Assembly: GCA_964016885.1 (NCBI GenBank)
Contig: OZ024762.1
Location: 20,212,001 to 20,276,000, forward strand
Length of the DNA: 64,000 nt
DNA from: Eledone cirrhosa
Lineage: Eukaryota
Reading direction: 5' to 3'
Each line of letters begins with the position of its first letter. The first letter of the stretch is position 1. Below, piece by piece: positions 7,437 to 57,200 of this stretch. Both the position numbers and the translations under genes were made by a program. The notes under the pieces are model-generated. The model was not told where the DNA came from. It saw only the letters and a list, made by a program, of their open reading frames with translations, and did no database searches.

Positions 7437-8452
7437 GTAGTTTTGAACCCTTTTCATACCAAGCCCACCTGAAACTATGATATGAAACTTTTTATTTTTT
7501 TAATGTTTATATTTATGTAAAAACCTTCCATCATAATTTTATATAAGGACCTTTATTAACCTTTTTTTAATTTGTTCTGCCAGATTTCTTATCTGAAAAT
7601 GTGTGTTGTACTTTGGGAGAGTCATGTTGCCAATAAAAACACATGCATCTGTTGATTTTCACTTCAATTTATTATAAATTTCCAGTTGGTTGGTTGGTTG
7701 GTTTGATAAGCGGAAGGGTGTTTATATATTGTCAAAGCTCTTTCGTTACACATTCTGTGACCTCCTTAGTGACTAGTTTTTTTTATTTTGTGAAGATGGT
7801 GCAGGAGAGAACAAAGGAAAGAGACACAAAATAAAAACCTAGTCACTGAGGAGGTCACAGAATGTGTGACGAAAGAGTTTTGACAATATATAAACAACCT
7901 TCCGGTTATCCAACCAACCAACTGGAAATTCATGATAAATTCATGATAAATTGAAGTGAAAACCAACAGATGTGTGTGTTTTTATTGGCAACATGACCCT
8001 ACCAAAGTATAGCGATACCTTTATTAACCCTTTTGATACAAGGCCTACCTGAAACCGACCCTGGTTCTATGATACAAAACTTTTTATTTTACAATTTTTA
8101 TATCTATTTAAAAACTTTCCATCATAACTTAATGTAAAAACCTTTGTGAAGTTATGTTCCAAACACCTGTTTGCTTTTCCTTCTGTTGTTTACTTGTCTC
8201 ACTCGCTTTACGCGTTTCACTTGTCCCAATAGCTTATTTTAGTTATTGCTCGCACCAACCTGAGGTATCTGATTTTTAATGTGATGAAATACCAATGATG
8301 GTTGGCAAATCACTGATGAGGGACTAATTTTATAATATGTAATCCATGTGCAACCATGCAGTATTCTTCTCCCCTTGTTTTTCATATATATATATATATA
8401 TGGAGGCACATGGAGGCACATGGCTTATATATATATATATATGGAGGCACAT

Positions 8453-8795
8453 GGAGGCACATGGCTTAGTGGTTAGAGCATTGGCCTTGCAATCAAAAGG
8501 TTGTGAGTTCAATTCTCAAACCGGGTGATGTGTTGTTTCCTTGAGCAAGACACTTTATTTCACATTGCTCCAGTTTACTCAGCTGTAGAAATGAGATGAT
8601 AGGGACTGAGGTCCCTATCATTCCACTGCAAAGTGGTCGTGGAGGTGCCACGGCAAAAAAGCACCCAGCACTCACTGAAAATGAGGTTGGTGTTAGGAAG
8701 GGCATCCAGCTGTAGAAATCAAGCCAGAATCAGTTCCCGTCCAACCCTTGCAAGCAGGGAAAAAGCGGACGTAAAATGAAATGATGATGATGATG
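8453..8795 (+). mobile_element. tRNA-derived SINE family B with CORE-like domain and RTE-LINE-derived tail (other copies 11235-11573 -, 11598-11880 +, 11963-12308 -, 20221-20559 -, 23660-23963 -, 24325-24610 -)
   Basis: A-box TGGCTTAGTGG, B-box GTTCAATTC, CCTTGAGCAAGACACTT core, 3' end CCCTTGCAAGCAGGGAAAAGCGGACGTAAAATG(ATG)n shared with RTE remnants. The recurrent 79-aa [12 protein letters not shown] is its antisense translation. Confidence 0.85.
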
Positions 8796-10259
8796 ATATA
8801 CACATATATACTATGCATGATATCATCGAAGGAAAAAGCAACAGCCTATACAGTTTTGTACCAGTAACGTAACTCATCTTCATCATCATCGATTAACGCC
8901 CATTTTCCATGCTAGCATGGGTTAGACGGGTCCTATTTTCAGGCAAGCTGTGTCGGGTGACCGTGTCTCGCTCATATAGGGGTGTTTCTGGCTGGTTTTC
9001 TATGGCTGGATGCCTTTCCTAACGCCAACCACATTGACATATATATATCATTTTATGTCTGCTTTTATATATATATATATATATTGTGTATATATGTATA
9101 TATGTATGATGTCAACCAAAGGAGCATATATACACAATATATACACAATATATATATTATATATACCATATATATTGTATATATATATATACTGTGAAGG
9201 CGTATGGCTGAGTGGTTAGAGAATTGGATTCACAATCTTGAGATTGTGAGTTTGATTCCTGGACCGAGCAATGCGTTATGTCCTTGAGCAAGACACTTTA
9301 TTTCACGTTGCTCCTTCTACCTGGAGTTGCGACCGATACATAGTATTAGCAACTGGAAAGACCGACGGAAACATTGTTTCCTCGGTCCGATTTGACGAAA
9401 GGCGATCGATCCTTTTTTATATATACAATATATGATGTCCCCCCAACAGCCTCAACAACTTGGCACCAGTGACATTGTAACTCATTTTTTCCAGAATATT
9501 TTCTAAATTATTTAAAAGTTATAGGCAGTATTTTTCATTAGAAATATGGTAAAAAAAAGGTTTAACCCTTTAACATTACTCTATATTTACTATTATATTT
9601 TTGAGGTAACGGCTTTATCTCACATAATATCGGATCTACGAGGCTTTGATATTATTTATGCTGAGAGACCAATACCTTGACATAAGTATGAGCAGCCGGT
9701 TATGGCCGGTTTGAACAGAAAGGGGTGAGAGAATTCTGGCTGGATATGGCTGGTTTAGATGCTAAAGGGTTAAACAAAAATAATAATTGTTTCTACTTTT
9801 GGTACAAGGCCAGCAATTATCCCAGTGCATTACTGGTACTTTATTTTATCGATCCCTGTAAGGAGGAAAGGCATAGTTAACCTTGCCGGGATTTGAACTC
9901 AGATAATAAAGGGACGTAACTCTATGCTGGAAAAAAAAATATTAATACCTTAACATCAGTATGAGCAGCCGGTTTGAACAGAATGAGGTGAGAGAATTCT
10001 GGCTGGATATGGCTGGTTTAAATTCTAAGGGGTTAACCACCCAAGTTGAAACCCATCTGTGGTAAAATTTACCTGTCATAATACAAGGGCTTATACAGTA
10101 AGGTACCAGTCTCATACTGAGGAAGATTGTAAACAACTTATTCCTCTCCACCCCACACCCTCACCAAAGAATTATTAGTCTTTTTATTTCTCTGTCAGGT
10201 TTGACCAGGTGCAGAGATAAACTAGAGATATGATGTCATTTGAGTTATGTTGTGTATGT

Positions 10260-14560
<4,301 letters not shown>

Positions 14561-14894: not shown

Positions 14895-17800
14895 TACCCA
14901 GCACACACTGTAAAGTGGTTGTGTAGGTGTCATGACAAAATCACCCAGTACACACTGTAAAGTGGTTGTGTAGGTGTCATGACAAAATCACCCAGTACAC
15001 ACTGTAAAGTGGCTGTGTAGGTGTCATGACAAAATCACCCAGTACACACTGTAAAGTGGCTGTGTAGGTGTCATGACAAAATCACCCAGTATACACTGTA
15101 AAGTGGCTGTGTAGGTGTCATGACAAAATCACCCAGTACACACTGTAAAGTGGTTGTGTAGGTGTCAAGACAAAAAGCACCCAGCACACACTGTAAAGTG
15201 GTTGTGTAGGTGTCATGACAAAATCCCCCAGTACACACTGTAAAGTGGCTGTGTAGGTGTCATGACAAAATCACCCAGTACACACTGTAAAGTGGTTGTA
15301 TAGGTCTCATGACAAAATCACCCAGTACACACTGTAAAGTGGTTGTGTAGGTGTCATGACAAAATCACCCAGTACACACTGTAAAATGGCTGTGTAGGTG
15401 TCATGACAAAATCACCCAGTACACACTGTAAAGTGGTTGTGTAGGTGTCATGACAAAATCACCCAGTACACACTGTAAAATGGTTGTGTAGGTGTCATGA
15501 CAAAATCACCCAGTACACACTGTAAAGTGGTTGTGTAGGTGTCATGACAAAATCACCCAGCACACACTGTAAAGTGGTTGTGTAGGTGTCATGACAAAAT
15601 CACCCAGCACACACTGTAAAGTGGTTGTGTAGGTGTCATGACAAAATCACCCAGTACACACTGTAAAGTGGTTGTGTAGGTGTCATGACAAAATCACCCA
15701 GTACACACTGTAAAGTGGTTGTGTAGGTGTCATGACAAAATCACCCAGTACACACTGTAAAGTGGTTGTGTAGGTGTCATGACAAAATCACCCAGTACAC
15801 ACTGTAAAGTGGTTGTGTAGGTGTCATGACAAAATCACCCAGTACACACTGTAAAGTGGTTGTGTAGGTGTCATGACAAAATCACCCAGTACACACTGTA
15901 AAGTGGTTGTGTAGGTGTCATGACAAAATCACCCAGTACATACTGTAAAATGGTTGTGTAGGTGTCATGACAAAATCACCCAGTACACACTGTAAAGTGG
16001 TTGTGTAGGTGTCATGACAAAATCACCCAGTACACACTGTAAAGTGGTTGTGTAGGTGTCATGACAAAATCACCCAGTACACACTGTAAAGTGGTTGTGT
16101 AGGTGTCATGACAAAATCACCCAGTACACACTGTAAAGTGGTTGTGTAGGTGTCATGACAAAATCACCCAGTACACACTGTAAAGTGGTTGTGTAGGTGT
16201 CATGACAAAATCACCCAGTATGCACTGTAAAGTGGTTGTGTAGGTGTCATGACAAAATCACCCAGTATGCACTGTAAAGTGGTTGTGTAGGTGTCATGAC
16301 AAAATCACCCAGTACGCACTGTAAAATGGTTGTGTAGGTGTCATGACAAAATCACCCAGTACACACTGTAAAGTGGCTGTGTAGGTGTCATGACAAAATC
16401 ACCCAGTACACACTGTAAAGTGGTTGTGTAGGTGTCATGACAAAATCACCCAGTACACACTGTAAAGTGGTTGTGTAGGTGTCATGACAAAATCACCCAG
16501 TACACACTGTAAAGTGGTTGTGTAGGTGTCATGACAAAATCACCCAGTACACACTGTAAAGTGGTTGTGTAGGTGTCATGACAAAATCACCCAGTACACA
16601 CTGTAAAGTGGTTGTGTAGGTGTCATGACAAAATCACCCAGTATGCACTGTAAAGTGGTTGTGTAGGTGTCATGACAAAATCACCCAGTATGCACTGTAA
16701 AGTGGTTGTGTAGGTGTCATGACAAAATCACCCAGTACACACTGTAAAGTGGTTGTGTAGGTGTCATGACAAAATCACCCAGTACACACTGTAAAGTGGT
16801 TGTGTAGGTGTCATGACAAAATCACCCAGTACACACTGTAAAGTGGTTGTGTAGGTGTCATGACAAAATCACCCAGTACATACTGTAAAATGGTTGTGTA
16901 GGTGTCATGACAAAATCACCCAGTACACACTGTAAAGTGGTTGTGTAGGTGTCATGACAAAATCACCCAGTACACACTGTAAAGTGGTTGTGTAGGTGTC
17001 ATGACAAAATCACCCAGTACACACTGTAAAGTGGTTGTGTAGGTGTCATGACAAAATCACCCAGTACACACTGTAAAGTGGTTGTGTAGGTGTCATGACA
17101 AAATCACCCAGTATGCACTGTAAAGTGGTTGTGTAGGTGTCATGACAAAATCACCCAGTATGCACTGTAAAGTGGTTGTGTAGGTGTCATGACAAAATCA
17201 CCCAGTACACACTGTAAAATGGTTGTGTAGGTGTCATGACAAAATCACCCAGTACACACTGTAAAGTGGCTGTGTAGGTGTCATGACAAAATCACCCAGT
17301 ACACACTGTAAAGTGGTTGTGTAGGTGTCATGACAAAATCACCCAGTACACACTGTAAAGTGGTTGTGTAGGTGTCATGACAAAATCACCCAGTACACAC
17401 TGTAAAGTGGTTGTGTAGGTGTCATGACAAAATCACCCAGTACACACTGTAAAGTGGTTGTGTAGGTGTCATGACAAAATCACCCAGTACACACTGTAAA
17501 GTGGTTGTGTAGGTGTCATGACAAAATCACCCAGTATGCACTGTAAAGTGGTTGTGTAGGTGTCATGACAAAATCACCCAGTATGCACTGTAAAGTGGTT
17601 GTGTAGGTGTCATGACAAAATCACCCAGTACACACTGTAAAGTGGTTGTGTAGGTGTCATGACAAAATCACCCAGTACACACTGTAAAGTGGTTGTGTAG
17701 GTGTCATGACAAAATCACCCAGTACACACTGTAAAGTGGTTGTGTAGGTGTCATGACAAAATCACCCAGTACATACTGTAAAATGGTTGTGTAGGTGTCA

Positions 17801-19730
17801 TGACAAAATCACCCAGTACACACTGTAAAGTGGTTGTGTAGGTGTCATGACAAAATCACCCAGTACACACTGTAAAGTGGTTGTGTAGGTGTCATGACAA
17901 AATCACCCAGTACACACTGTAAAGTGGTTGTGTAGGTGTCATGACAAAATCACCCAGTACACACTGTAAAGTGGTTGTGTAGGTGTCATGACAAAATCAC
18001 CCAGTACACACTGTAAAGTGGTTGTGTAGGTGTCATGACAAAATCACCCAGTATGCACTGTAAAGTGGTTGTGTAGGTGTCATGACAAAATCACCCAGTA
18101 TGCACTGTAAAGTGGTTGTGTAGGTGTCATGACAAAATCACCCAGTACACACTGTAAAATGGTTGTGTAGGTGTCATGACAAAATCACCCAGTACACACT
18201 GTAAAGTGGTTGTGTAGGTGTCATGACAAAATCACCCAGTATGCACTGTAAAGTGGTTGTGTAGGTGTCATGACAAAATCACCCAGTATGCACTGTAAAG
18301 TGGTTGTGTAGGTGTCATGACAAAATCACCCAGTACACACTGTAAAGTGGCTGTGTAGGTGTCATGACAAAATCACCCAGTACACACTGTAAAGTGGTTG
18401 TGTAGGTCTCATGACAAAATCACCCAGCACACACTGTAAAGTGGTTGTGTAGGTGTCATGACAAAATCACCCAGTATGCACTGTAAAGTGGTTGTGTAGG
18501 TGTCATGACAAAAAGCACCTAGCACACACTGTAAAGTGGTTGTGTAGGTGTCATGACAAAATCACCCAGTACACACTGTAAAGTGGTTGTGTAGGTGTCA
18601 TGACAAAATCACCCAGTACACACTGTAAAGTGGTTGTGTAGGTGTCATGACAAAATCACCCAGTACACACTGTAAAGTGGTTGTGTAGGTGTCATGACAA
18701 AATCACCCAGTACACACTGTAAAGTGGTTGTGTAGGTGTCATGACAAAATCACCCAGTACACACTGTAAAGTGGTTGTGTAGGTGTCATGACAAAATCAC
18801 CCAGTACATACTGTAAAATGGTTGTGTAGGTGTCATGACAAAATCACCCAGTACACACTGTAAAGTGGTTGTGTAGGTGTCATGACAAAATCACCCAGTA
18901 CACACTGTAAAGTGGTTGTGTAGGTGTCATGACAAAATCACCCAGTATGCACTGTAAAGTGGTTGTGTAGGTGTCATGACAAAATCACCCAGTATGCACT
19001 GTAAAGTGGTTGTGTAGGTGTCATGACAAAATCACCCAGTACACACTGTAAAGTGGCTGTGTAGGTGTCATGACAAAATCACCCAGTACACACTGTAAAG
19101 TGGTTGTGTAGGTCTCATGACAAAATCACCCAGCACACACTGTAAAGTGGTTGTGTAGGTGTCATGACAAAATCACCCAGTATGCACTGTAAAGTGGTTG
19201 TGTAGGTGTCATGACAAAAAGCACCTAGCACACACTGTAAAGTGGTTGTGTAGGTGTCATGACAAAATCACCCAGTACACACTGTAAAGTGGTTGTGTAG
19301 GTGTCATGACAAAATCACCCAGTACACACTGTAAAGTGGTTGTGTAGGTGTCATGACAAAATCACCCAGTACACACTGTAAAGTGGTTGTGTAGGTGTCA
19401 TGACAAAATCACCCAGTACACACTGTAAAGTGGTTGTGTAGGTGTCATGACAAAATCACCCAGTACACACTGTAAAGTGGTTGTGTAGGTGACATGACAA
19501 AATCACCCAGTACACACTGTAAAGTGGTTGTGTAGGTGTCATGACAAAATCACCCAGTATGCACTGTAAAGTGGTTGTGTAGGTGTCATGACAAAATCAC
19601 CCAGTACACACTGTAAAATGGTTGTGTAGGTGTCATGACAAAATCACCCAGCACACACTGTAAAGTGGTTGTGTAGGTGTCATGACAAAATCACCCAGTA
19701 CACACTGTAAAGTGGTTGTGTAGGTCTCAT
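14895..19730 (+). repeat. 47-bp tandem satellite, about 103 copies (CACCCAGTACACACTGTAAAGTGGTTGTGTAGGTGTCATGACAAAAT)
   Basis: Period of 47 measured (14941 to 14988); near-identical units; no spacers. Confidence 0.97.
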
Positions 19731-20111: not shown

Positions 20112-20572
20112 AGTGAGCGAGTGTGTGTGTATGTGTGTGTGTGTGTATAGGTATATGTGTGTGTGCATATATATATATACATGTGTTTATATATATATGT
20201 ATGTATGATGTGTATGTATCATCATCATCATTTCATTTTACGTCCGCTCTTTCCCTGCTTGCAAGGGTGGGACGGGAACTGATTCTGGCTTGATTTCTAC
20301 AGCTGGATGCCCTTCCTAACACCAACCTCATTTACAGTGAGTGCTGGGTGCTTCTTTGCCGTGGCACCTCCACAACCACTTTGCAGTGGAATGATGGGGA
20401 CCCCAGTCCCTATCATCTCATTTCTACAGCTGAGTAAACTGGATCAATGTGAAATAAAGTGTCTTGCTCCAGGAAACAACACATCACCCGGTCTGAGAAT
20501 TGAACTCACAACCTTTCGATTGCAAGCTCAATGCTTTAACCACTAAGCCATGTGCCTCCATATGTATGTATG

Positions 20573-22335: not shown

Positions 22336-22773
22336 TAAAATAATTAAGTCAAATATGTAAAATTTGGCTTCGTTTATTATAAATTATAGATATACTGCTA
22401 TATATATTTTGGTGACGGCCATCATTTGCTGTGACCTCTTCAGGCAGTCCGAATTGGTGTGGGAAAGACAGGTACACATGTTGTTGAAGTGTCAATATGT
22501 CCAGCTCTTGGTTGTGTTGTTATTGCTCTGAGGAATTGGAACCATATGGTTCCAGTTCCTCAGAGGATAACAACACAACCAGGAGCTGGACATATCGATG
22601 TATTGACGGAGTAAAAAACACTTCAACAACATGTGTACCTGTCTTTGCCACACCAATTCGGACTGCCTGAAGAGGTCACAGCCAATGATGGCCGTCACCA
22701 AAATATATATAGCAGTATATCTATAATTTATAATAAACGAAGCCAAATTTTACATATTTGACTTAATTATTTT
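22336..22773. mobile_element. Fold-back palindrome of about 210-bp arms, probable Penelope-like terminal remnant
   Basis: Spacerless centre GGAACCAT|ATGGTTCC at 22545/6; flanked by (TA)n; unpaired tail 22774-22868; degenerate CTGAAGA-GGTCA..TGGCC core lacking GAAA. Confidence 0.6.
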
Positions 22774-23387
22774 ACATTACTCCAGAGTAAACAAACCAAC
22801 CTACGTACTTCGTCGAGTGCTCCAATCTGCATACTGAGGTGTCAGTAAACAACCAATATATACTCAATATATATATATATATATATATAGCCAAGTTTAA
22901 GTCATTTACAACCAAGTTCTAACAAGTTTAGGCTGATTTAAATCGCAGAGAAATTTATGAATATTCAAACCTGTCCAAAACATTTTTTACTGCAACAATG
23001 GTGAAGGACAAAAATAAATAAAAGCAAAGTTAAAACAAAAAAAAAACCTTTTGTTTTATCTCTTGTTAATTATTTTACAACTTATTCAAATTCTGCTCAC
23101 ACAGTTAATTTTGAAAATTATTCAGTGCAGCACTATAATTATAACACATTTTAACATACAAAGTGTAACACTATGGGGTACACATGAAGATATGTGGTAC
23201 AGTGGTCAGGGAATTTGATTCAAAGTTATTAGATCAGGAACACACAGCTCACGTTATTCTTTGTATAAAGAGAATAACATAAAGTATGTTTACACTTGTT
23301 TATTTTCACTCTATGTTTATTTAAAAACTGCAGTTTTATCATCATCATCATCACTGTTTAGCGTCCAGTTTTCCATGCTTGCATAGG

Positions 23388-23442
<55 letters not shown>

Positions 23443-23526
23443 AAAGGTAAACAGAAATAACAACACAATCGGTACAGTATATGTAAGGAATATATTAGGT
23501 TAACGCTTGAAATAGCAGCAAGAGGG

Positions 23527-23561
23527 TCTTAACGTTTCGGCACTAGTCCTTCATCAGAAGA
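23527..23561 (-). ncRNA. Minimal type-I hammerhead ribozyme motif (Penelope-like)
   Basis: Minus strand TCTT-CTGATGA-AGGACTAGTGCC-GAAAC-GTT-AAGA; paralogue of 39380. Confidence 0.55.
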
Positions 23562-23994
23562 AAGAATGAGAAATTAGGTAGATTGAAGGGATAGGTGAGT
23601 GGAATTGGAAAAAATGTTTTTAGAGAAAAATATCTCATATATATATATCTCTTATATATATCATCATCATCATCATCTTACGTCTGCTTTTCCCTGCTTG
23701 CAAGAGTGGGACGGGAACTGATTCTGGCTTGATTTCTACAGCTGGATGCCCTTCCTAACACCAACCTCATTTACATTGAGTGCTGGGTGTTTTTTTACCG
23801 TGGGACCTCCACGACCACTTTGCAGTGGAATGATAGGGACCCCAGTCCCTATCATCTCATTTCTACAGCTGAGTAAACTGGAGCAATGTGAAATAAAGTG
23901 TCTTGCTCAAGGAAACAACACATCACCCGGTCTGAGAATTGAACTCACAACCTTTCGATTGCAAGGTTGTGAGTTCAATTCTTGGACCGGGTGA

Positions 23995-24292
23995 TAACCA
24001 TGTAGGAAATTGATATTAAGAAATGTGATTAATTTATGGAAGATTGTGTAACCATGTAGGAAATAGATATTAAGCAATGTGATAAATATATGGAAGATTG
24101 TGTAACCATGTAGGAAATCGATATTAAGCAATGTGATAAATATATGGAAGATTATATAACCATGTAGGAAATAGATATTAATAAATTTATGGAAGATTAT
24201 ATAAACATGTAGGAAACTGATATATAAGAAATGTGATAAATTTATGGAAGATTAGGTAACCATGTAGGAAACTGATATTAAGAAATGTGATA
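23995..24292. repeat. About 54-bp tandem minisatellite, 5-6 copies
   Basis: taaccatgtaggaaa...tggaagattgtg repeated. Confidence 0.85.
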
Positions 24293-25707: not shown

Positions 25708-26810
25708 TTATGATCCCACCTCATACCAGACAACACATCCAATACAGTCATTTTCTCTTTTATCTGTCTTCTCTTAACTGTTCTCCTGGGCATAGCCAGG
25801 TACCTCAGCTAGTATTATATATAATAATCGGAGAACTGCGAGACTCTGTCAGGGATATTTTTTCTGAACACATTATCAAAATAAGAGAGGCAAACCAAGG
25901 AAGACCTATGTGGAGGTGATGAGAGCTGATCTCAAATTGCTGGGACTCATGGAGGAGAGGATGAAGGAACGCGACAAATGGAGAGATGCTATGCTGAAAA
26001 GACCCGCCCAAGCCATGCATGTGTGGAAAAATGAACGTATAAACGACAATGATGATGATGATGATAATGATAAAATATATATGTGAGTAAGGGTAAAAGG
26101 TAAAATCCCCTTCAGTCCCAAATGACCATGGGATTTGCACCTAGAAAGTTTCCCTCTGAGGCAGAAGTCCGAGCAGGTTGTTTGTGGAAGACCAGCAGTT
26201 GCCCATGCACGACAATCTCCCCTCTCCACGCCACTGATCTTGTCCAAGGGATAACACAACTAATTTCTACAGTTGAGTAAACTGGAGCAATGGGAAATAA
26301 AGTCTCTTGCTCAAGAATACAACGTAAACCCTGGTCTGAGAATTGAACTTGCGATTGTAAGCTCAACGCTCTAACCACTAAGCCATGTGCCTATATATAT
26401 ATATATCTATCTATCTAAGGCGGGTAAAATTCCCGAGATCCATGGACGAGTTCTCTCCAGCGGTCTCTGTCCCTCATTATCGCTGCCATGTCCTGCGTCT
26501 CCAACAGACCAGTGTCTGTCCGTAGGGCATCAACATATATATATAAGAATAAAGGAACAAGGATTCAGTGTTGCATCATAACATATTTAATAAAATATTA
26601 CATATGTTTCACTATCAATCAGCTCGAGGAAAGACCTATTATAGATCGAAGCTGACTCTGTAATCGAAAGATTATCAGATATGTTTCTTATGTGACCTTG
26701 CCTCCGATAGTATTATACTCTGCTCTGTGTGAGCATCAAGTGCTCAACTGGCATACTGGCTACAGGCGCAATTTTTCTTGCAGCCATACACCTATATATA
26801 TTATATATAT

Positions 26811-30572: not shown

Positions 30573-30737
30573 ATAGGAACCAGTAAGACCCCGACAGCTG
30601 AGCTCAAGCCGTTTCGACGGCTAATTCTGGAATTAGCTGTCGGGGTCTTACTGGTTCCTATTACCCACTCTACTACCTCAAGTATTGAGTACTTTGGTGC
30701 GTTATGGTCCACCTGGTTCCTTACCACATTTCCTTCG

Positions 30738-30740
<3 letters not shown>
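30573..30740 (+). mobile_element. Short fold-back element family in (TA)n (copies 31283-31453, 41538-41720, 42157-42220, 48622-48787, 50583-50730, 56614-56730); probable Penelope-like pLTR end
   Basis: TAGGAA...CCCCGAC arm, inverted GTCGGGG...TTCCTA arm and a constant ~80-bp tail; most copies are directly bounded by TA runs. Confidence 0.7.
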
Positions 30741-30863: not shown

Positions 30864-30910
<47 letters not shown>

Positions 30911-31002
30911 GAGGTTATATTTAATTTGTTGGGATACAACAAGCTTAAAAATATTTTTGTAACTGATATAAAACACTCAACAGATTATAGGAGTAAATAT
31001 AC

Positions 31003-32295: not shown

Positions 32296-34738
32296 AATTT
32301 TCTCTGATTGTGGAACCCACCCATCTGTCCTTGACCACCCTCCTCACCTACCCCCCCCAAATTCACCTCCACCTTACCCTATTCTTTGACAATGTGACAT
32401 CTTAGTCAGGTGTCACACAATACTGCATTTGTCTATGTCAGGTTTGGCCAGTTGAGACAAATTTATAAAAAATAAAATAGTAAAGCCATATTTCATAATG
32501 GCCGTGAGTTCAAATCCTGCTGTAGTCACCATAACATATCCCATTATCATTATCATCATTTGGCGGTGGATTGGCAGTATCGGTGGAGGGTTGGACGCCA
32601 TGCTTTCCAGCATAGTTACGTCCCTTTACGGTCTGAGTTCAAATCCCGCCGAGGTTGACTTTGCCTTTCATCCTTACGGGGTCGATAGAATAAAGTACCA
32701 GTAATGCACTGGTTAATTGCTGGCCTTGTGCCTAAAGTAGAAACAATTATCATTATCATTATTTTACATCCGTTTTTCCCTGCTTGCAAGGGTGAGACGG
32801 GTTCTATTCAGCACAGCATCTCTCCATTTGTCACGGTCCTCTGTCATCTCTTTGAGCTTCAGCGATCTGAAGTCAGTTCTCATCACCTCCGCCCATGATT
32901 TTCCTGATCTTCCTCTACTGCGTCTTCCTTCTACTGAGATTTCTTGGCACTTCTTCACCCAGCGGTCATCCTCCATGCACATCACATGTCCATACTAACG
33001 CAGTCGTCTCTCCTGTACACTACAGCCCTGTACACTACAGCTTATCCCTCTTATACACAATTTCTCTCTCAACTCATCTATGCTTGGTCATTCACACACA
33101 TTGACTTTGCATATCCAACGGAACATGCTTGCTTCATTTCTCTCCAGCTGTCGCATATCATTCATTACCATATTTCTAATGAAATACACTCTATTTTAAT
33201 TGATTAATTAAGAATTTTGAGGGATTTACTAAAATTATTAATTATTTAATTACTAAGATAGTAACTTAATTATGTTGGAAGATTTTAATTTAAGCTGGAA
33301 ACCATTAAAAGGGGTGGTTTTATTTCATAGAACCAGAGTCAGTTTTGGCCAGGTTGGTAACTAAAGGGATTTGAACTCAGACTGTAAAGGGGCGTAACTC
33401 TATGCTGCAAAGCATGGTGGATTGGCAGTATGAGTAGAGGGTCGGACGCCATGCTTTGCAGCATAGAGTTACACCCTTTTATGGTCTGAGTTCAAATCCC
33501 GTCGAGGTTAACTTTGCCTTTCATCCTTACGGGGTCGATAAAATAAAGTACCAGTAATGCAGTTGGGATCGATTTAATCAACTTTCCCCTCCCCCAAAAT
33601 TGCTGGCCTTGTGCCTATATAAGCAATCATTATTTTCATTTTATTGTTTATATATATATATATATGTGTCTTTTACTTTTCTTATATAAATAATACAAAT
33701 CTTTACACAAACAAAACCCACATCGTACCATCCTGTACCGTCCTGTCCCGTCTGTAATGTTTTTCTTGATGTCAGCCCTTGTGGCCAATAAAGAAATCAT
33801 TATTTGCCTTTCATCCTTACGGGGTCGATAAAATAAAGTACCAGTAATGTACTGGGTAATTGCTGGCCTTGTGCCTAAAGTAGAAACAATTATTTGTAAT
33901 TTATGTTATAATAATTGTTTCTACGTTAGGCACAAGGCCAGCAATTATCCAGTACATTACTGGTACTTTATTCTATCGACCCCGTAAGGATGAAAGGCAA
34001 AGTTAACCTCGGCGGGATTTGAACTCAGAATGGCAAGGGCCGTAACTCTATGCGCCAAAGCATGGCATCCGACACTCTACCAATACTGCCAATCCACCGC
34101 CTTTATGTTATAATAATAATGTTATAATATGTTATAATAATAATTGTTTCTACTTTTGGCACAAGGCCAGCAATTACCCAGTACATTACTGGTACTTTAT
34201 TCTATCGACCCCATAAGGATGAAAGGCAAAGTTAACCTCGGCGGGATTTGAACTCAGATCGTAATGCAATGTTGTGACTATTGTTGCTGATGTCGTTGTT
34301 GTTGTCATTGATGTAGCTGTTGCTGTCGTTGTTGTTGTTATAGTTGTAGTAGTTATTGTTGTTGTTGTTGTCGTAGTTATTCTTGTTGTTGTTGTGTTAG
34401 TTATTGTTGTAGTTATTGTTGTTGTTGTCGTAGTTATTGTTGTAGTTATTGTTGTTGTTGTTGTTGTTGTTATTGTAGATTTAGTTATTGTTGTTATAGT
34501 TGTAGTCGAGATATAAAATGGATATTAAGCAGTCTTACCGACTTAACGAGTGTTGCTGATGAATGTCCATACAGGGAGGTAACTCTATGCTTCAAAGCAT
34601 GGCATCCGATCCTCTACCGATACTGCCAATCCACCACCTTATATGTTATAATAATATGTTATAATAATTATGTTATAATAATAATGTTATAATATGTTAT
34701 AATAATAATACTAATTCTTATATTTGTTATTATTTCAG

Positions 34739-36530: not shown

Positions 36531-37437
36531 AAGCCTTTTGTACGATGATATATATATATCAACCCACAGCACTTTACTATTACTTTATTTAAGTGACCCT
36601 GGAATGATGAAAGGCAAAGTTGATCACAGCTGGATTTAACCCCAGAACATCGGAAATCATTACTAAATGTTGCAAAGCATTTTGTCCGACACTCTAGCAA
36701 TTCTGCTAATCCACCACCTAATAACATACGGAAAATACTATCAATACAATAGAAACAACCAGCAAGAGCTACACTGCACATACCCAAGGTGCACAGGGCC
36801 GTGCTCGGTAAAGCTGTAATGAGGCGCGATAAAAATAATAAGGGAAATAATAATAATTGTTTCTACCTTAGGCACAAGGCCAGCAATTATCCCAGTGTAT
36901 TACTGGTGCTTTATTTTATTGACTCCGTAAGGATGAAAGGCAAAGTTAACCTTGGTGGGATTTGAACTCAGAACATAAAGAGTTATGGCCCTTTATGCTC
37001 TGAGTTCAAATCCCGCCAAGGTTAACTTTGCCTTTCATCCTTACGGGGTCGATAAAATAAAGCACCAGTAATGCACTGGGGGTTATTACAGGCCTTGTGC
37101 CTAAGGTAGAAACAATTATTATTATTTCCATTATTATTTTTATCGCGCCTCATTACAGCTTTACCGAGCACGGCCCTGTGCACCTTGGGTATGTGCAGTG
37201 TAGCTCTTGCTGGTTGTTTCTATTGTATTGATAGTATTTTCCGTATGTTATTAGGTGGTGGATTAGCAGAATTGTTAGAGTGCCGGACAAAATGCTTTGC
37301 AACATTTAGTAATGATTTCCGATGTTCTGGGGTTAAATCCAGCTGTGATCAACTTTGCCTTTCATCATTCCAGGGTCACTTAAATAAAGTAATAGTAAAG
37401 TGCTGTGGGTTGATATATATCATTGTACAAAAGCCTT
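36531..37437. repeat. Long inverted duplication, arms about 445 bp, centre about 36980-36991
   Basis: ORFs 36503..36787(-) and 37185..37454(+) translate identically for about 80 aa; arms are reverse complements with few mismatches. Confidence 0.92.
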
Positions 37438-39185: not shown

Positions 39186-39379
39186 ATGTCAATATATATT
39201 AAACTATCTTCTGAAATTCCATTGCCCCACCCCCCACTCCACCACATGTTTGTTTCTTTTATTTTAATTTAATTTAATAGCATTTTATTTCCCTTGAATG
39301 GACCTGTTATTTTTCTCTAAAAACATTTTTTCCAATTCCACTCCGCCCGTCCCTTCAATCTTTCTAATTTCTCATTCTT

Positions 39380-39415
39380 TCTTCTGATGAAGGACTAGCG
39401 TCCGAAACGTTAAGA
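39380..39415 (+). ncRNA. Minimal type-I hammerhead ribozyme motif
   Basis: TCTT-CTGATGA-A-GGAC(TAGC)GTCC-GAAA-CG-TT-AAGA: stem I TCTT/AAGA, stem II GGAC/GTCC, loopless palindromic stem III ACGT. Confidence 0.65.
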
Positions 39416-39560
39416 CCCTCTTCCTGCTATATCAAGCGTTAACCTAATATATTCCTTCCATATACTGTACCGATTGTGTTGTTATTTCTGTTTTCCTTTT
39501 ACATACATATTACATATATATACACATACACACACATATATATTATATATACATACACAC

Positions 39561-39999: not shown

Positions 40000-40252
40000 C
40001 CGTATTTCCCAACGTCGAAGACGTTATTTTTTTCCTAAAATAAGTCTCAAAAATCTACCATACGTCCTGGAGGCCGAAGGTTGTTTATTATTTTTTTTCA
40101 AATGGGGTCGATAAAATAAAGTACCAGTAATGCACTGGGTAATTGCTGGCCTTGTGCCTAAAGTAGAAACAATTATTTTTTTTCAAATTTTTGGTTGTCA
40201 AAATTAGGGTACGTCCTCAAGGAGGAAGCCTCTTCAGCGCCAGGAAATACGG
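40000..40252. mobile_element. Tc2/pogo-like MITE with TA target duplication, carrying a SINE-A 3' fragment (other copies about 44539-44708 and 62267-62420)
   Basis: TA-CCGTATTTCC ... GGAAATACGG-TA terminal inverted repeats. Confidence 0.75.
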
Positions 40253-40921
40253 TATATATGTGAATGTGTGTGTGTGTGAAATATGTGGATTCCTCATGTA
40301 TATCGAGAGGTGACCACAGTTAAAAAAAAGTACTCAATACACATTAGTAGAGTACAGGCATCTTTATTCTATTATAGAAGTGACTTCTACAAGACTAGAA
40401 CTGTTTCATTCATAAGAAAATCACCAGGAAAGATCTGATGATCTCTTACGAATGAAACAGTTCTAGTCCCGTAGAAGTAATTTCTATAATATTAATTATA
40501 ATAATAATAATATATATATATATATTTCGTTTCTGAATTTGTTTAGCAAGATTCTTTATCTGAAATCGTGTGTTGAAACCGATATTGTTATACTTTGGGA
40601 GGGTCATGTTGCCAATAAGAAACACACGCACCAGTTGCTTTCAATTCAATTTATTATAATAAATTTATAATAAATTTATAAATTTATAAATTTATTATAA
40701 ATTTATTATAAATTTATTATAATAAATTGAAGTGAAAGCAACTGGTGCGTGTGTTTCTTATTGGCAACATGACCCTCCCAAAGTATAACAATATATATAT
40801 ATATATATTTATAAAACCATATTTATTTCATTATACATATTTCAGGGATACCAAATTAAATCATGGTATGCCTTCATCAGACAAAATACAATATATAAAA
40901 CTGTTATATATTGTATTTTGT

Positions 40922-40968
40922 CTGATGAAGGCATACCATAATTTAATGTGGTATCCCTGAAATATGTA
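40922..40968 (+). ncRNA. Hammerhead-like motif with extended stem II (mirror copy on - at about 40833-40880)
   Basis: CTGATGA-AGGCATACCATA...TGTGGTATCCCT-GAAA-TATG-TA; stem I not convincingly paired. Confidence 0.45.
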
Positions 40969-41017
40969 TAATGAAATAAATATGGTTTTATAAATATAGT
41001 TTCCATTTATTAATATC

Positions 41018-41079
<62 letters not shown>

Positions 41080-42156
41080 GAAAAGTATAGAAATTGTTGT
41101 AGCGAGAAGCTAACAGTATTCCATAACATATATGTGACTATAGCGTCAAAATGGGAAAATAGTTAACATAAGATATGGGAAAAATAATTCAGACTCAATT
41201 CAAAAGGAATCAGGATATAGATTTATCCAACAGAATTTAGAGAAATCCAGGGAAAAATCAATAGAGCTTTAACTCATGATAAAACAAAGTCTAAAGTACT
41301 CAACCTTCAATTTGGGACAACTTCAAATGCTCTGTATAGTCTTGAAAAGACTATTTCACGAATATATATATATATATATATATAGGTGTATATATATATA
41401 TAGGTGTATATATATATATAGGTGTATATATATATATAGGTGTATATATATGACCCGTCCCACCACTGCAAGCAGGGAAAAGCAGACATAAAATGATGAT
41501 GATGATGATGATATATATATATATATATGTGTATATATAACGAAGGAGGTGTGGTATGGAACCAGATGGACCATAATGCACCAGAGTACTCAATACTTAG
41601 GGTAGTAGAGTGGGTAATAGGAAAATGTTTAACCCCGACGGCAGAGCTCAAGCCGTTTTGACGGCTAAATAGCCGTCGAAACGGATCGAGTTCTGCCGTC
41701 GGGGTTAAACATTTTCCTATATGTGTATATATATATATATGTGTATATATATATATATATATACCAGATGTGGCTGGATATAACTAGATATAACTGGATA
41801 CAACAGGATATAGCTGGATATAACTAGTTATAACTAGATACAATTACCCTGTAACTACATATAACTGGATAAAACTCAGATTTTGGTCTTTGCATTTATT
41901 ATTACTAAATATATATATGTATATATATAGTTCAGGGAGACAACAGAGGTGCAAAAAGTCTTAGTTTCACGCTTTATATTGAAAAGAGGAAAGAAAGTTT
42001 GACGTGTCGGGTGTAAGCCCTTCTTCAGTACAAAGTAGAGACAGGATCACAAAGGAGAAACAGAAAAAAGGTCCGAGTAAAGACAAGAAGTTGAAAATGA
42101 AGAGTGAAAATAAGACAAACTGTTAAGTCGACTTGTACATATATATATATATATAT

Positions 42157-43100
42157 AGGAAAATGTTCAGGACCCCGACGGCAGAGCTCAAGCCGTTTCG
42201 ACGGCTATTTCTGGACTAAATTAGATTTTTAGCATGGTAATAAAGAGCCGAACTTTTCAAGGGGTAATTCTTTATATGGGAAGATTGTAGTTGTCAAAAG
42301 GATTGGTCAAAATTTCTTTTAAACACAATCAAATCTTTCATGGTGGTGGGTGGGAGGTGGGGGTGGCTGAACTTCCCTGTAGAACAATGAGGAAGTGGAT
42401 GGAGCTGGCCAAGCGATGAAAGTGAATTCTATACAGCAAATTCTAAGGAGTGTGGAAGAAACTAGGCTAGCTAGAAAGCAGGCGAAAAAAGAATTCTGGA
42501 GGAATCTGAGAGTGGGAAGTTATAAAATTAAAAGTTAATAAATTGAAATTAAAAACATAAAAAATAATAAATAAAAATAATAATAATATCAAAAAATGAA
42601 ATAATAAAAAAATGATAAAAAAACTAAAGTCTAAAACAGCTGCTATATTTTTAGTTGGTATTGCGTTTTCGACCAGTGCTATATAGAATTTACTGGGGTG
42701 GGGGTACTGAGGCTACAGAAGCCCGATGGGCTGCCTCAGGGTAAGCGAAAGAGGAAAAAGGAAAAGGAAGAGGAGAGGGAGTGGAAGGAAGTGAGAAGAA
42801 GAGATAAAGGGAAAAAAGAAAAGAAGTACATCAACCTATGTATGCTGGGGTTTCCCCTATCTTGTTCGGCAAGTGGGGAAAAGAAGGATGTTGCAGCCAT
42901 TGTCTACCCACCCGGGTCATGGGGGGGGGGGGGGGGTAAGTCCTACTCAATCGGTGTTTACATGTGGTTACAAGTTTGTCTTTTTTGTTTAGGAGTTGGT
43001 CCTTCGTAAACAGCATTTGTATTGTTTCCTCCGAGCATAAGTTACATGGATGGCATCCTCCCATGTAGGAGTTACATGTAGTGTAGTAAATAAAGCAGCT
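42157..43100 (-). mobile_element. Penelope-like element 3' remnant (GIY-YIG endonuclease C-terminus, 3' UTR, pLTR end)
   Basis: 42951-43076 minus reads CNSYMGGCHPCNLCSEETIQMLFTKDQLLNKKDKLVTTCKHR, resembling the recalled PLE C-terminal CxLC..E...LLNK..EL..CRH motif; runs into the 30573-family terminus and (TA)n. Confidence 0.65.
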
Positions 43101-43261
43101 TGCTCTCATCCAGCAATGTCTCATGTAGTTGTCTCACTAAGAAAAGGCATCTATGGTGCTTCTTCTTTGGCACAAAACAAAATTACATCTCATCTAATTT
43201 GACTCTTTCCCTAATTAATTGTGTTAAAACTTTCTATTTCATATATATGCATATGTATATA

Positions 43262-43316
<55 letters not shown>

Positions 43317-43591
43317 GTTTGTATATGTATAATAAAGCCAAAACAATGCAGGTATGGACATAGAATAAAGAATGCAAATGCAAAAGATATTGTTGACAAT
43401 TAGTCTTTTACCTTAGATTTATTTAAATGTCATTAATTTTCGAGATAATATCTCTTCTTCGGAGGGAAGTAAAGCGGTTAAACCAGTGTTCTAAATAGCT
43501 TGATTCCATACCTGCATTGTTTTGGCTTTATTATACATATACAAACGTTTATACCTCATTACACAATGCTTCAAGTGAACTATAACTTCCT

Positions 43592-43654
<63 letters not shown>

Positions 43655-43764
43655 CACACACACACATACATATATATATAAATATACATATACATATATA
43701 TATATATATTTATTAAAACAACAGATTAAAGTTTAAGCAAAGAATTGCTGCTTTCACCCTTAAC

Positions 43765-44062
43765 GAGATGGGTTGGGCTCCAAAACTATGGTTCCATTGT
43801 GAGATGAGTTGGGCTCCAAAACTATGGTTCCATTGTGAGATGAGTTGGGCTCCAAAACTATGGTTCCATTGTGAGATGGGTTGGGCTCCAAAACTATGGT
43901 TCCATTGTGAGATGAGTTGGGCTCCAAAACTATGGTTCCATTGAGATGGGTTGGGCTCCAAAACTATGGTTCCATTGTGAGATGAGTTGGGCTCCAAAAC
44001 TATGGTTTCATTGTGAGATGGGTTGGGCTCCAAAACTATGGTTTCATTGTGAGATGGGTTTG
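43765..44062. repeat. 36-bp tandem repeat, about 8 copies
   Basis: GAGATG(A/G)GTTGGGCTCCAAAACTATGGTTCCATTGT. Confidence 0.92.
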
Positions 44063-45515
44063 GCATGGCCAACTGGCCTGTCCCTCCTTATCATGGAGCC
44101 ATCCAGTTCCACACTGTAAATATGGTTGGTGTTAGGTAGGGCATCCAACTGTAAAATACCCGGCCAAATTTACAATCCTCACTGGAACAAAGTGTGAGAT
44201 GGCCAACTCTGGCCAGGCTTGCCTCCCAGTGTGGACGACCCGTCTAACCCATGCAAGCATGGAAAAATGGATGCTGAATGGTGATGGTGATGATACAGCA
44301 TATAGGAATGGAATATACATACATCCTACTAGCACGTATAACATACATGACTATACACTCATTTTACTAGCAGATGTGGTTTATCGTGATTATATAGCTT
44401 GCAGGAATATACACCCAGGTGGCTTCTGATAGGTAGGTTTTTAACCCTTTCATTACCATATTTCTAATGAAAAACATTGACTATGATTTTCAAATAATTT
44501 TTAAAATAATAAAAAATTTGGAAGGATTTAGTAATATACCATATTTCCTGGCGCCGAACACGCTTCATCCTTGGGGACGCACCCTAATTTTGACAAGCAA
44601 AAATTTAAAAAAAAAAATAAAAAACAACCTTCAGCCTCAGGGAGGCATGGTAGATTTTTGAGATTTATTTTAGGAAAAAGGTAGCATCTTTGACACCAGG
44701 AAATACAGTGGCTAACTTTCTCATTGTTAAAATGGTGTTTAGAACATAACTTAAAGGTTCTTACATAAAATTATGATGGAAGATTTTTAGATAAATATAA
44801 ACACTTTAACCCTTTTTGTTACCATATTTCCAATAAAAGACACTGGTTATGGTTTTCAAATAATTTTGGAAATAAAAAAAATTTGGAGGGATTTAGTAAT
44901 ATAGCTAACTTTGTGTTATTTAGTTATTTTTTGGAGCATACAGTTAACAGTGTTCTTATATAAAACCACGAGGGAAGGTTTTTAGATAAATATCTTTAGA
45001 AACCGCGGAGTGGGGAGACCCAAGATGACTTGGGATGAGGTGATAAAAGCCGACCTTACCCAACTACACCTCTCAAAGTCAATGACACACGACCGTGACT
45101 TCTGGCGTCACGCAGTAATACAGGGTACCCGACCTCCCATGGGTACATGCTGAAGCATATAAACAATATGCCCCCACTCCCCCCCCCACCGCAAGGTGGT
45201 CGTGGAGGTGCCACGGCAAAAAAAGCACCCAGCCTACACTGTAAAGTGGACGTGTAGGCGCCACGAAAAAGCACCCAGCGCTCACTGTAAATGAGGTTGG
45301 TGTTAGGAAGGGCATCCAGCTGTAGAAATCAAGCCAGATCAGTTCCTGTATGAGCAAGGCATGGTCAGCCGACCAGACACTGCCCACAACAGGACAACCC
45401 GTCTAACCCATGCTAGCGTGGAAGAACGGACGTAAAACGGTGATGATGATGATGATGATGATCTTCTTTTTTCTTTAGGTCGGGCTGATTGCCTGGACCA
45501 ATTCTACTCTTATCT

Positions 45516-54200: not shown

Positions 54201-57200
54201 AAAGGTGAGACTGGAAATAGCATATATATATATATATATATATATATATATATATATATATATATATATATATATAAGGATTAAAATACTGGAGCGTGTT
54301 GGAGTTAAACACCCTCTTCGTATTATAGAAATGACAGTAAATATATATATATATACAAGTTAATATAAATTAATATATGATAAACACGTAAGTGTTTGCA
54401 TTGCAAAAGACTAAGTTAGCTAGAATGAAATAAACTAATTAAAATAAATATATTTATTTTAATTAGTTTATTTCATTCTAGCTAACTTAGTCTTTTGCAA
54501 TGCAAACACTTACGTGTTTATCATATATTAATTTATATTAACTTGTATTTCACTGCTCAGAAATGCTTCTTTCTTTGAGCTAATTAATTGTAAATGACTC
54601 TAAATATAATATGATATATATATATATATATATATATATATAAAAAACATGAGAAGAAAGAAGAATACTGCGTGGTTTGCACATGGGTTAAATATGATAA
54701 AAATAGCCCTTCGTCAGTGATTTTCCAACCATCATTGGTATTTCAATACATATATATATATATAATTCAAGGAAACAACAAAACAGAGCTACAAAAAGTC
54801 TTATTAGTTTCACGCTTTATATGGAAAAGGGGAAAGAAAGTTCGACGTGTTGGGCTTAAGCCCTTCCTCAGGAGTACAAATTAGAGACAGGCGCACAATA
54901 GATACAGAAAATAAAAAGTAGTCCGTAGTAAAAATGAGAGTAAACAAGAAAAACCGTTAGGTAGTCTTGGTAACGATTTTGGAAAGTGAAATGTGTGTGT
55001 TTTAGTGTTGATATTATGTGTATGTGTATGTTTAAACGTGTGTGTGTTTTTTAAAGGTTTATTATGTTTAAAGGTTTATTATTTTAAAGGTTTATTATGT
55101 AGCATGGAGATAGACGTTAAATGTTGATGATGATGATGATGATGAGTATCAATGGTTGTGTGTTATGCATACATCCGTGTAGTGTGTGGTTGTGGACTTT
55201 TATGTGTGAGTGAATGTAAATTTGAATGCGTATTCTGTATATGTGTGTTGAAGTTTATTTTGTGTGTGTGTGAAGTAGGTGACTGTGATTTGTATGTAAG
55301 AGTGTATATATTAACGAGCCTGTGATATAAGTAAGATAGAGGAAGTATGTTTAATGTGTGTTAGAGAGTATATGGCAGAGCAGATTATAGGAAGGTGTGT
55401 GGCATTAAGGCTAGGGGGATGAAAGTTTTGTAAAGAAAATATAAGTTGCTGTTCTCTACACCGGCATGAGTCAAGATTTGGCACAAAGTGCAAGCCGAAA
55501 GACACAGGGGATGTGTTACATCCAGGGGTATGTGTATATTTTTTATTTATTTATGTGTTTATTTACTTGTCACTAGTTGGTTGGTTGTTCTATCTGTGTG
55601 TGTCTGATTTGTTTTGTTAGTTCGGTTTTTGTGTGTGTCTGTATGTCTTCATTTTGTCCTGAATTACTAATTGTGATGTTGATATTCCACTCATGTTTTG
55701 TTTCATTTTGGTTGGAGTTTGTTTATGTTTGTCGCCTGTGGTTTGTCTGAGCATATATATATATATTCTAAAATGGCTGATTGAAAACGTTATGTGTTGT
55801 TTTTTTTTTCTTTTTTTTATGTTCCTTCTTCTCACTCTTTATCTTTTATTTCTAATTCTATCTTCTAACGAAGGACTAGTGTCTGAAACGTTAAGACTCT
55901 TTTCCTGTTATTTCAAGCGTTAAACTAATATATTTCTTCAATATGTCATTTACTTTGTTGTTTCTGTTTATTGCGTGTGTGTATGTGTATGTATATATAT
56001 ATATATATATATATATATATATATATATATATATACACACACACACAACTAATATAAATACTTCAATTTTTCTGATTTTTTTCCAATTTATCCAATATCT
56101 CTGAAGAAGTGACAACTGATTATACATTTGCTATCGAATACTTGCTAACATTATATGATTACGCAAGCAGCGATACATAGGTATTCGGTCTGTTACAGAA
56201 ACATATGTCAATACCTAATAAATTCCTTTTTTAATAAAAGCACTTTCATTTTATATTCATCCTTTCTATATATATATATATATATATATATATATATATA
56301 TATATATATATATATGTATGTATATACACATATATAATGATATATGTACATCTTAATGTTTCTTTAGAACTGGAGATGTGGTCAAGATCTATGTACTTTA
56401 TGGATTCCTAAACAAATATTTTCAAAAGAAATATGTAACAGTATCGAAAAATGTTCCACATCCAAAATTTACCATATCAGAGAATAGTGTTGGTAAGTTG
56501 CTCATTTATAAACCCTCACTCACACACACACACACACACACACATATATATATATATATAATTTCTCAAAGAAATTTTTAATAGGACAAAGACAATGTGA
56601 AAAACAACAGAAAGGCTGGAGCTCAGCCATCGGGGTCCTGAATCTTTTCATATTACCCACTCTACTACCCAAAGTATCGAGTACTCTGCTGCGTTATGGT
56701 CCACTTGGTTCCTTACCACACTTTGTTATATATACACATATAGGGCGGTGGATTGGCACTATCGGTAGAGGGTCGGACGCCATGCTTTCCAGCATAGTTA
56801 CGTCCCTTTACGATCTGAGTTCAAATCCCGCCGAGGTTGACTTTGCCTTTCATCCTTACGGGGTCGATAAAATAAAGTACCAGTAATGCACTGGCTAATT
56901 GCTGGCCTTGTGCCTAAAGTAGAAACAATTATTATCGTCATCATCAAAATAAAGTACCAGTAATGCACTGGGTAATTGCTGGCCTTGTGCCGAAAGTAGA
57001 AACAGTTATATATACACATATATATATATATATGGGTAAAGACCCCTTTCGGTCATGAGTGACCATGGGATTTGTACCTAGACGGCACAAGTCTGGGCAA
57101 GGGTGTTTGTGGAAGACCAGCAGTCACCCGTGCATACCAATCTCCCCTCCCCATGCCACTGATGTTGTCCAAGGGAAAGGCAATGGCCAGTACAGATTGG

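Follow-up and report, generated by a model that had tools for sequence, protein, structure and literature searches.

Inverted truncated copies, one-sided tails and a preference for (TA)n have been described for Penelope-like elements (PLEs), with Octopus families included, in the portions of Craig et al. (2021; PMC8557442) drawn upon here, where the Octopus Naiad and Hydra PLEs are both given with a (TA)n preference. Parts of other reports describe pairs of hammerhead ribozymes on opposite strands, 100–700 bp apart, in Schistosoma, as well as PLE hammerheads featuring an unpaired base after the first core, a G-C closing pair and a palindromic stem III (PMC4209133). They also describe target duplications of 8–10 bp for rotifer Penelopes (PMC3846280) and a PLE protein, predicted to be a dimer, that prefers AT-rich DNA, cuts and extends both strands in vitro, and begins reverse transcription at two RNA sites bounding the tail (PMC11167929). 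For Octopus vulgaris, 31 recently active Penelope-like families are given in the part of PMC13282606 consulted, and the repeat library of that study may already include the families described below. In this study, a stretch of 64,000 nucleotides from the octopod Eledone cirrhosa (assembly GCA_964016885.1, contig OZ024762.1, positions 20,212,001 to 20,276,000 of the forward strand; hereafter the window) was analyzed, which contains numerous short fold-backs bordered by TA runs. The architecture of these stubs is already published (Craig 2021, Cervera 2014, Arkhipova 2013), and they are additional members of it. They likely represent 3' ends of several PLE families with extreme 5' truncation, each fold-back being predicted to consist of two head-to-head copies.

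The layout (TA)n, arm, inverted arm, unpaired tail, (TA)n was found in six families, designated A to F, with tails of 25–94 nt (tail lengths count the 2–5 bases that also belong to the TA run). All six structures named in a preliminary description of the window were re-located to within a few bases, and its statement that they are unrelated in sequence holds, since a BLAST of the candidates against the window gave zero cross-hits between families. As it had also stated, none of the six families contains an open reading frame (ORF). The layout it had proposed was recovered in the six named structures, with two exceptions among their relatives: one family B fold-back has no TA run at the end of its short arm (48624–48787), and one family E copy has a tail at both ends (50839–51140). 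Furthermore, several un-inverted single stubs between TA runs were found, in these families and in others. The individual features are as follows (hammerheads are predicted ribozymes).

22338–22866, plus strand: family A fold-back with tail-less arm, zero-loop centre near 22545, tailed arm (193 identical of 197 aligned arm bases) and 94-nt tail
22667–22711, plus strand, with its mirror 22399–22443, minus strand: family A hammerhead-like core with one core change
30576–30738, plus strand: family B fold-back, arms 24/24 identical, 80-nt tail, bulged hairpin at 30667–30690
31287–31452, plus strand: family B fold-back, 92% like 30576 and in the same orientation, possibly its local duplicate
41540–41720, minus strand: family B fold-back, both arms full, loop of 2 nt
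42158–42215, minus strand: family B tail-less arm beginning at a TA run, with a putative link to the 1.1-kb stretch behind it
48624–48787, minus strand: family B copy with tail, the exception whose short inverted arm reaches no TA run
50587–50729, plus strand: family B fold-back with a shortened tailed arm
56561–56730, plus strand: family B single copy, un-inverted, with tail
40526–40790, minus strand: family C fold-back, 95 identical of 96 aligned arm bases, 60-nt tail at the left side
7562–8016, minus strand: older family C fold-back (copy 7570) in non-TA DNA, both ends as in 40526
7846–7880, plus strand: intact-core hammerhead of copy 7570, reading outward
7549–7561, plus strand: left 13-bp direct repeat of copy 7570, presumed target-site duplication
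8017–8029, plus strand: right 13-bp direct repeat of copy 7570
40809–41018, plus strand: family D fold-back, 88 identical of 90 aligned arm bases, 25-nt tail; intact-core hammerheads at 40922–40970 (plus strand) and 40832–40880 (minus strand)
31079–31128, minus strand: family D short single copy including the tail end
50159–50242, minus strand: short single copy of family D whose tail end adjoins a TA run
43314–43593, plus strand: family E, long tail-less arm (minus strand) and short tailed arm (45/45 identical), 146-nt spacer and hence no tight hairpin, 44-nt tail
About 43434–43462: family E hammerhead-like core with one change, in the minus-strand tail-less arm
50839–51140, no strand assigned: family E two-tailed copy whose ends resemble a 62-bp terminal inverted repeat, with a hammerhead-like core near 51028 (minus strand)
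54356–54613, plus strand: family F perfect 95-bp fold-back (95/95 identical), 68-nt tail, bulged hairpin at 54555–54580, scripted hammerhead scan negative
23436–23636, minus strand: family G single stub between TA runs, intact-core minimal hammerhead at 23531–23557
39308–39506, plus strand: family G stub, intact-core minimal hammerhead at 39384–39411
55767–55991, plus strand: diverged family G stub flanked by TA runs; its hammerhead (55865–55892) has one core change
41930–42138, minus strand: family H short stub (209 nt), degenerate hammerhead
54765–55752, minus strand: family H 988-nt copy between TA runs, 3' end as in 41930
40300–40491, minus strand: family I fold-back, tail left, bulged hairpin at 40332–40353, first hammerhead core at 40435 (plus strand)
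50437–50525, plus strand: family K tiny fold-back with the tail hairpin motif at its centre and a TA run at its end
26546–26801, plus strand: TA-bounded stub, tail hairpin motif with one mismatch, hammerhead not significant
56036–56266, plus strand: TA-bounded stub, hammerhead cores intact, long loop II

The one-tailed fold-backs are real sequence features of the window, known here from the assembled sequence alone. Outside tandem repeats, an outer end at a (TA)≥5 run was detected for 11 out of 30 local fold-back pairs, compared with 2.8% expected per pair (nominal p of 3e-10, the rows being non-independent); seven of these pairs represent PLE-like elements or their relatives, two are pairs of repeats resembling short interspersed nuclear elements (SINE-like), and two belong to a large fold-back at 36560.

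The ends of the elements are fixed within families, and the join in the middle varies. Six out of six tailed family B copies finish at one position or within a few bases of it, and five of the six tail-less B arms stop at one and the same TA, although 14 TA/AT sites are available on the B strand. At least four distinct fold-back points were counted in this family, the seven aligned copies of which in the 64 kb are all short. The same combination of a fixed 3' end and variable 5' truncation was seen in families B, C, E and H; within each of the latter three, copy lengths differ and the 3' end is constant. The tail-less end sits at a TA or TATA inside the element and overlaps the adjoining TA run by 2, 3, 4, 5, 4 and 3 bases in A to F, respectively (chance 0.03–0.18 per family). 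Three of 11 rows were omitted from this count, namely 41529, whose start already included the shared bases, and 50839 and 40260, which were unfit for a one-tail probe.

Copy 7570 is particularly informative in this respect. As the preliminary description had noted, it lacks TA flanks, and it is related to the family C fold-back at 40526, sharing both of its ends. Since it retains the family C tail-less end in non-TA DNA, this end appears to be determined by the element itself and not to result from slippage into a TA run. Furthermore, both ends of the copy are exactly flanked by a 13-bp direct repeat of which the window contains no further occurrence; this flank length was reached by 4 of 400 control pairs. 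The repeat suggests that the target was cut with a stagger of about 13 bp. Among the six fold-backs examined, copy 7570 is the only one with a visible target duplication, TA runs making duplications unreadable.

Hammerhead ribozymes provide further evidence. A strict minimal descriptor (both cores intact, stems I–III) was applied to the 40.8 kb of unmasked window sequence and returned five matches (7846, 23557, 39384, 40880 and 40922); 200 shuffles averaged 0.195 and never gave more than 2. All five lie within candidate families (C, D twice and G twice). In a relaxed scan, p ≤ 0.03 was obtained for 11 out of 20 hand-picked stretches, including those of families A, C, D and E. Taken together, the descriptors predict ribozymes, of type I and in sense orientation as in PLEs, in A, C, D, E, G and the stub at 56036, and several of them share the unpaired base, the G-C pair and the palindromic stem III given in the portion of PMC4209133 cited above. 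In four of the six families (A, C, D and E) the cores point outward; since the ribozymes read outward in these fold-backs, the arms would be joined at their 5' sides, an arrangement already published for PLEs. The scripted scan was not significant for family H, the copies of which (41930–42138 and 54765–54980) have ACA for AAA in the second core, representing either a shared variant or a dead ribozyme. A complete family B hammerhead, recognized by eye with two core changes in the copy at 42158, was rejected (script p of 0.40, folding unsupportive).

A bulged hairpin of the form RCTC-stem-loop-stem-TH-GAGY is common to the tails of four unrelated families (B, F, I and K), with an A-U outer pair in B and I and a G-C one in F and K. 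In total, nine matches were found, whereas 200 shuffles gave 0.75 on average and at most 4 (the descriptor was formulated post hoc); six of them belong to family B, and eight are located 34–49 nt before a TA run. By eye, the motif also follows the hammerhead and a TATA in the consensi of Hydra-2_Amil and Hydra-2_Ajap printed in PMC8557442, that is, in two of the six novel Hydra consensi there; the Crog consensus, a third, has it in looser form. Hydra-1_Obim and Hydra-1_Ajap, in contrast, end shortly past the hammerhead at a TA-rich site, which resembles the tail-less end. Its use as a link to the Hydra clade is a lead of our own analysis and not a published defining feature; at the level of literature listings, no open paper on the tail hairpin or on the TA overlap of the tail-less end was found, with subscription papers and Repbase mostly outside this coverage.

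Among described groups, the Hydra clade (Hydra-1_Obim, Hydra-2_Amil, Hydra-2_Ajap and Penelope-13_HM) comes close in the parts of PMC8557442 considered, where it combines a (TA)n preference with a 3' hammerhead having a real stem III, and where Penelope-13_HM is noted with a 5'-truncated inverted copy. The elements of the window have the TA flanks as well, with only half a hammerhead in B and F, but differ in their longer tails, and the clade-defining protein motifs (RWK, DKT, CxCX5C, no CCHH) have no ORF counterpart here. With canonical PLEs carrying a C-terminal nuclease (Penelope/Poseidon, Neptune and Cercyon), the stubs share the inverted truncated pseudo-long terminal repeat, the one-sided tail and the palindromic inverted junction, as well as a target duplication of similar size and minimal hammerheads (portions of PMC4209133, PMC3846280 and PMC11167929). 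As in endonuclease-positive (EN+) PLEs generally, for which target duplications of about 8–12 bp are expected, head-to-head inverted 5'-truncated copies occur with a tail at one end, optionally at both; their orientation was set here by tail and hammerhead. In contrast to the canonical elements, both arms are stubs here, the tails measure 25–94 nt compared with 30–40 nt in the published accounts consulted, and the tail-less start overlaps 2–5 target bases of the TA run, whereas the lizard element is reported to prime without homology. The Naiads (Naiad_Obim, Naiad_Ovul and Naiad_Omin) are likewise present in Octopus, with a (TA)n preference, inverted structures and tails; however, as far as the part of the literature used here goes, they are without canonical hammerheads and have an N-terminal nuclease, whereas the window has many hammerheads and a single nuclease-like frame, located near a 3' end. 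Because of their hammerheads, assignment of A, C, D, E and G to the Naiads was rejected; for family F it is possible. Animal non-LTR retrozymes (bioRxiv 10.64898/2026.07.22.740005, in part) are also ORF-less, PLE-derived units with type I hammerheads, but they are arranged as head-to-tail tandem units, in contrast to the head-to-head single elements with tails found here.

Coding evidence within the window is limited to family H, which was not among the six families of the preliminary description. Its two copies of 209 and 988 nt have an identical 3' end, and near this end the longer one contains a 54-amino-acid minus-strand frame (55389–55550) ending in E-xx-LI-xx-L-xxxx-P-x-S-L-N. This GIY-YIG-like C-terminal motif at 55454 (minus strand) is the only one of its kind in the window and appeared in 0 of 300 shuffles, the motif having been written after the match was seen, and its spacing is like that of the nuclease end of two Naiad proteins in the part of the PMC8557442 supplement consulted. 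Three weak database matches of the frame, all to repetitive proteins, were discarded. When 14 stretches were read in six frames, no frame resembling a reverse transcriptase (RT) was recognized by eye, and the window contains no long copy in which a direct (tandem) pseudo-long terminal repeat around an ORF could be seen. Six short peptide motifs were absent from the PMC8557442 supplement, and metagenome contigs did not contain the family B pattern in exact form.

In our opinion, a PLE origin of the fold-backs is very probable. The outward hammerheads, the fixed 3' and variable 5' ends, the 13-bp duplication and the Hydra-like tail motif support this part of the preliminary description; a direct tie of the six families to an RT or GIY-YIG element was not obtained. 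Within a PLE origin, priming on both target strands has a chance slightly better than even. According to this mechanism, the GIY-YIG nuclease of the element would make two cuts about 13 bp apart, one in each strand, in AT-rich DNA that is mostly (TA)n, and each free 3' end would prime reverse transcription. One priming event, at the far start site, would yield the tail; the other, at the inner TA site, would yield none, and 2–5 bases there could pair with the TA target. Both cDNAs would halt after 15–250 nt, in many cases within the hammerhead or close to it, and would be joined to each other by their 3' ends, often at a short palindrome. Within (TA)n the resulting duplication would be invisible, but it would add TA, splitting one run into two. 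The more specific version, in which double priming from a staggered cut takes place at two fixed RNA starts, the inner start is a TA pairing with the microsatellite, the tail hairpin serves as the signal for the RT, and a duplication of about 13 bp of (TA)n breeds further targets, is tentative and, as a whole, rather unlikely. A related route to inversions is known from L1 twin priming, in which two primers from the two target strands produce an inverted 5' part. L1 inversions do not duplicate the same stretch; the window arms, in contrast, overlap in sequence and would need two templates or re-copying.

Several results weigh against this interpretation. Within the window, none of the six families could be linked to an RT or GIY-YIG ORF, the family H frame had no relative in protein database searches, and by eye no family matched the printed consensi of Naiad_Obim, Naiad_Ovul, Naiad_Omin or Hydra-1_Obim. 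Five of the six families have tails of 44–94 nt, longer than the published 30–40 nt, and PMC11167929, in the part drawn upon, reports priming without homology to the cut DNA. The scripted hammerhead scan was not significant for B and F, with the 3' half alone being clear in B, and no Rfam hammerhead was found in two short stretches or among the 150 of 222 matches listed, which included from Rfam only shape-driven, sub-threshold microRNA matches. Since the descriptors and stretches were picked after inspection, the p-values are optimistic. The tail hairpin is part of the minimum-energy fold in F and I, but not in B, and folding of the B, F and I tails does not stand out against shuffled sequences (z of −0.4 to −0.7). 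Finally, the family B copy at 48624 is shortened on the side opposite to that of the four copies with a longer tail-less arm, and the asymmetry of the arms could stem from later deletions in unstable palindromes.

This last point is relevant for a different view of the second arm, namely that a tail-primed PLE cDNA snaps back at a palindrome, copies itself back to the inner TA and is joined to the target there, unequal arms being the result of later deletions. To our judgement this is a serious possibility that falls somewhat short of even chances. Palindromic centres with loops of zero to 2 nt are present in A, F and the copy at 41540; zero-loop centres fit both snap-back and two-strand priming. 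PMC3846280, in the portion consulted, interprets palindromes at inverted PLE junctions as self-priming, and the two-tailed copy at 50839 fits copying to the very end. However, the tail-less arm carries sequence absent from the tailed arm in four copies (43314, 30576, 31287 and 50587; three if 30576 and 31287 go back to one event) compared with one shortened the opposite way, and plain snap-back copying cannot give such longer tail-less arms, barring later deletions. Moreover, the tail-less end is fixed even in the non-TA DNA around copy 7570. The preliminary description had viewed the structures as discrete non-autonomous mini-PLEs, which would move as ready-made, retrozyme-like hairpins with the PLE protein supplied in trans. 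The lack of an ORF in all six families, the uniform shortness of the aligned B copies and already published non-autonomous PLE derivatives agree with this proposal, but it was not borne out: fold-back points vary between B copies, copies of C, E and H vary in length around a common 3' end, and retrozyme-type tandem hammerhead units are lacking, with all five strict matches residing in single or head-to-head copies. The varying B fold-back points and the length range of H fit 5' truncation better, and discrete mini-elements are accordingly regarded as improbable.

An origin as miniature inverted-repeat transposable elements (MITEs), DNA transposons with terminal inverted repeats and TA targets in which the tail is a part of the repeat lost by slippage on the other side, would be suggested by the copy at 50839–51140, whose inverted ends of 62 bp are 90% alike with TA on both sides, and by the fact that each of the six families has its tail-less end at an inner TA, which slippage would produce. 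Most of this support is removed by copy 7570, which has the family C tail-less end without a TA run plus a 13-bp duplication. In addition, two-tailed copies, which the symmetric repeats of such transposons (with a 2-bp TA duplication) would give, account for 1 of the 13 listed fold-backs, family B stops at one of 14 TA/AT sites, and outward hammerheads and single 5'-truncated copies with a fixed 3' end are unexpected for such transposons. This origin therefore has a very small probability, and we assign a comparably small one to palindromes made by the host, in which single PLE or repeat stubs came first and breaks at (TA)n cruciforms were later repaired by fold-back. SINE-like fold-backs elsewhere in the window (33803–34001, 23922–23995 and 36560–37412) are in line with such repair, but it leaves the family-fixed tail-less end and the 13-bp duplication around the whole of copy 7570 unexplained. 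Even less credible are amplification or assembly chimeras: the perfect 95/95 palindrome of family F might be read in this way, but substitutions or indels distinguish the two arms of A, C, D, 41540 and 7570, separate copies end at identical element positions, and copy 7570 has a target duplication. Public sequencing runs contained up to 60% of the words sampled from 40000–44000, at least half of them in 3 of 15 runs, which came from one study; these values are uninformative on junctions.

TA targeting of the PLE-derived stubs is a bias and not exclusive. The preliminary description had assumed insertion specifically into TA microsatellites, which was not borne out, since the surroundings of copy 7570 are non-TA DNA and SINE-like repeats have TA borders as well, so that TA flanks are not specific to PLE-like stubs. 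Dispersed repeats of this kind (labeled by their look) lie between TA runs at 8443–9038, 11232–11587, 11964–12308, 20199–20572 and 49821–50127. In total, the window contains 196 (TA)≥5 runs, and 22,535 of its bases, about one third, are masked as tandem repeat. The 26 PLE-like pieces, which total 6.1 kb of the 64 kb, are touched by 32 out of the 196 runs (873 of 3861 bases), with a median length of 22 nt compared with 15 nt. The idea that such insertions explain part of the TA-run abundance could apply to a minority share; most runs lie elsewhere, many of them within degenerate TA/CA blocks. Further TA-bounded or hairpin stubs outside the named families were observed at 41077–41361, 53989–54177, 48109–48360 and 60556–60605, the hammerhead scan not being significant for those at 53989 and 48109. 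Another family is found beside the family D stubs (30908–30982 and 50245–50314), in differing relative orientation and each time ending at a TA run, and a micro-tandem of a unit plus (TA)n, with two 14-nt units and TA runs between, is located at 31159–31240.

With regard to the surroundings, a trypsin-like protease gene extends over about 51488–63215, with exons placed by eye at 51488–51667, 56370–56492, 60413–60527, 62453–62598 and 63060–63215. Its last exon (63060–63212) matches the Pfam Trypsin domain, the two closest database relatives being proteins of Argonauta hians (70% and 65%), which by itself points to a likely octopod host, and five of the stubs would fall in introns of this gene. 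The fold-back at 36560–37412 (854 bp, 96% alike) surrounds a SINE-like repeat, begins at a short TA run and has an 8-bp direct repeat at 36530 and 37430; window-wide scans gave no hammerhead or tail motif in it. Long tandem arrays occupy 14900–19730 (units of about 47 bp), 52400–53460 and 58020–60260, the first of which resembles by eye part of a dispersed repeat at 45220–45290. The repeat hosting the insertion of copy 7570 (5960–6110, 7440–7560 and 8025–8160) starts with TTAA-CCC, a possible piggyBac-like end.

How PLEs form inverted copies and one-sided tails is named as an open question in the parts of PMC8557442 and PMC11167929 cited here. The stubs hold both ends and the join within 150–500 bp, and are thus suited to testing two-strand priming against snap-back, while the tail hairpin offers a concrete RNA element for the existing in vitro PLE assay. 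In terms of annotation, MITE finders could misfile about 26 pieces (6.1 kb) of the window as DNA transposons. If the more specific version of the proposed mechanism is true, the tail hairpin would be conserved from Hydra-clade elements of coral and sea cucumber to octopod stubs, and TA-targeting PLEs would breed their own targets, each insertion duplicating about 13 bp of (TA)n.

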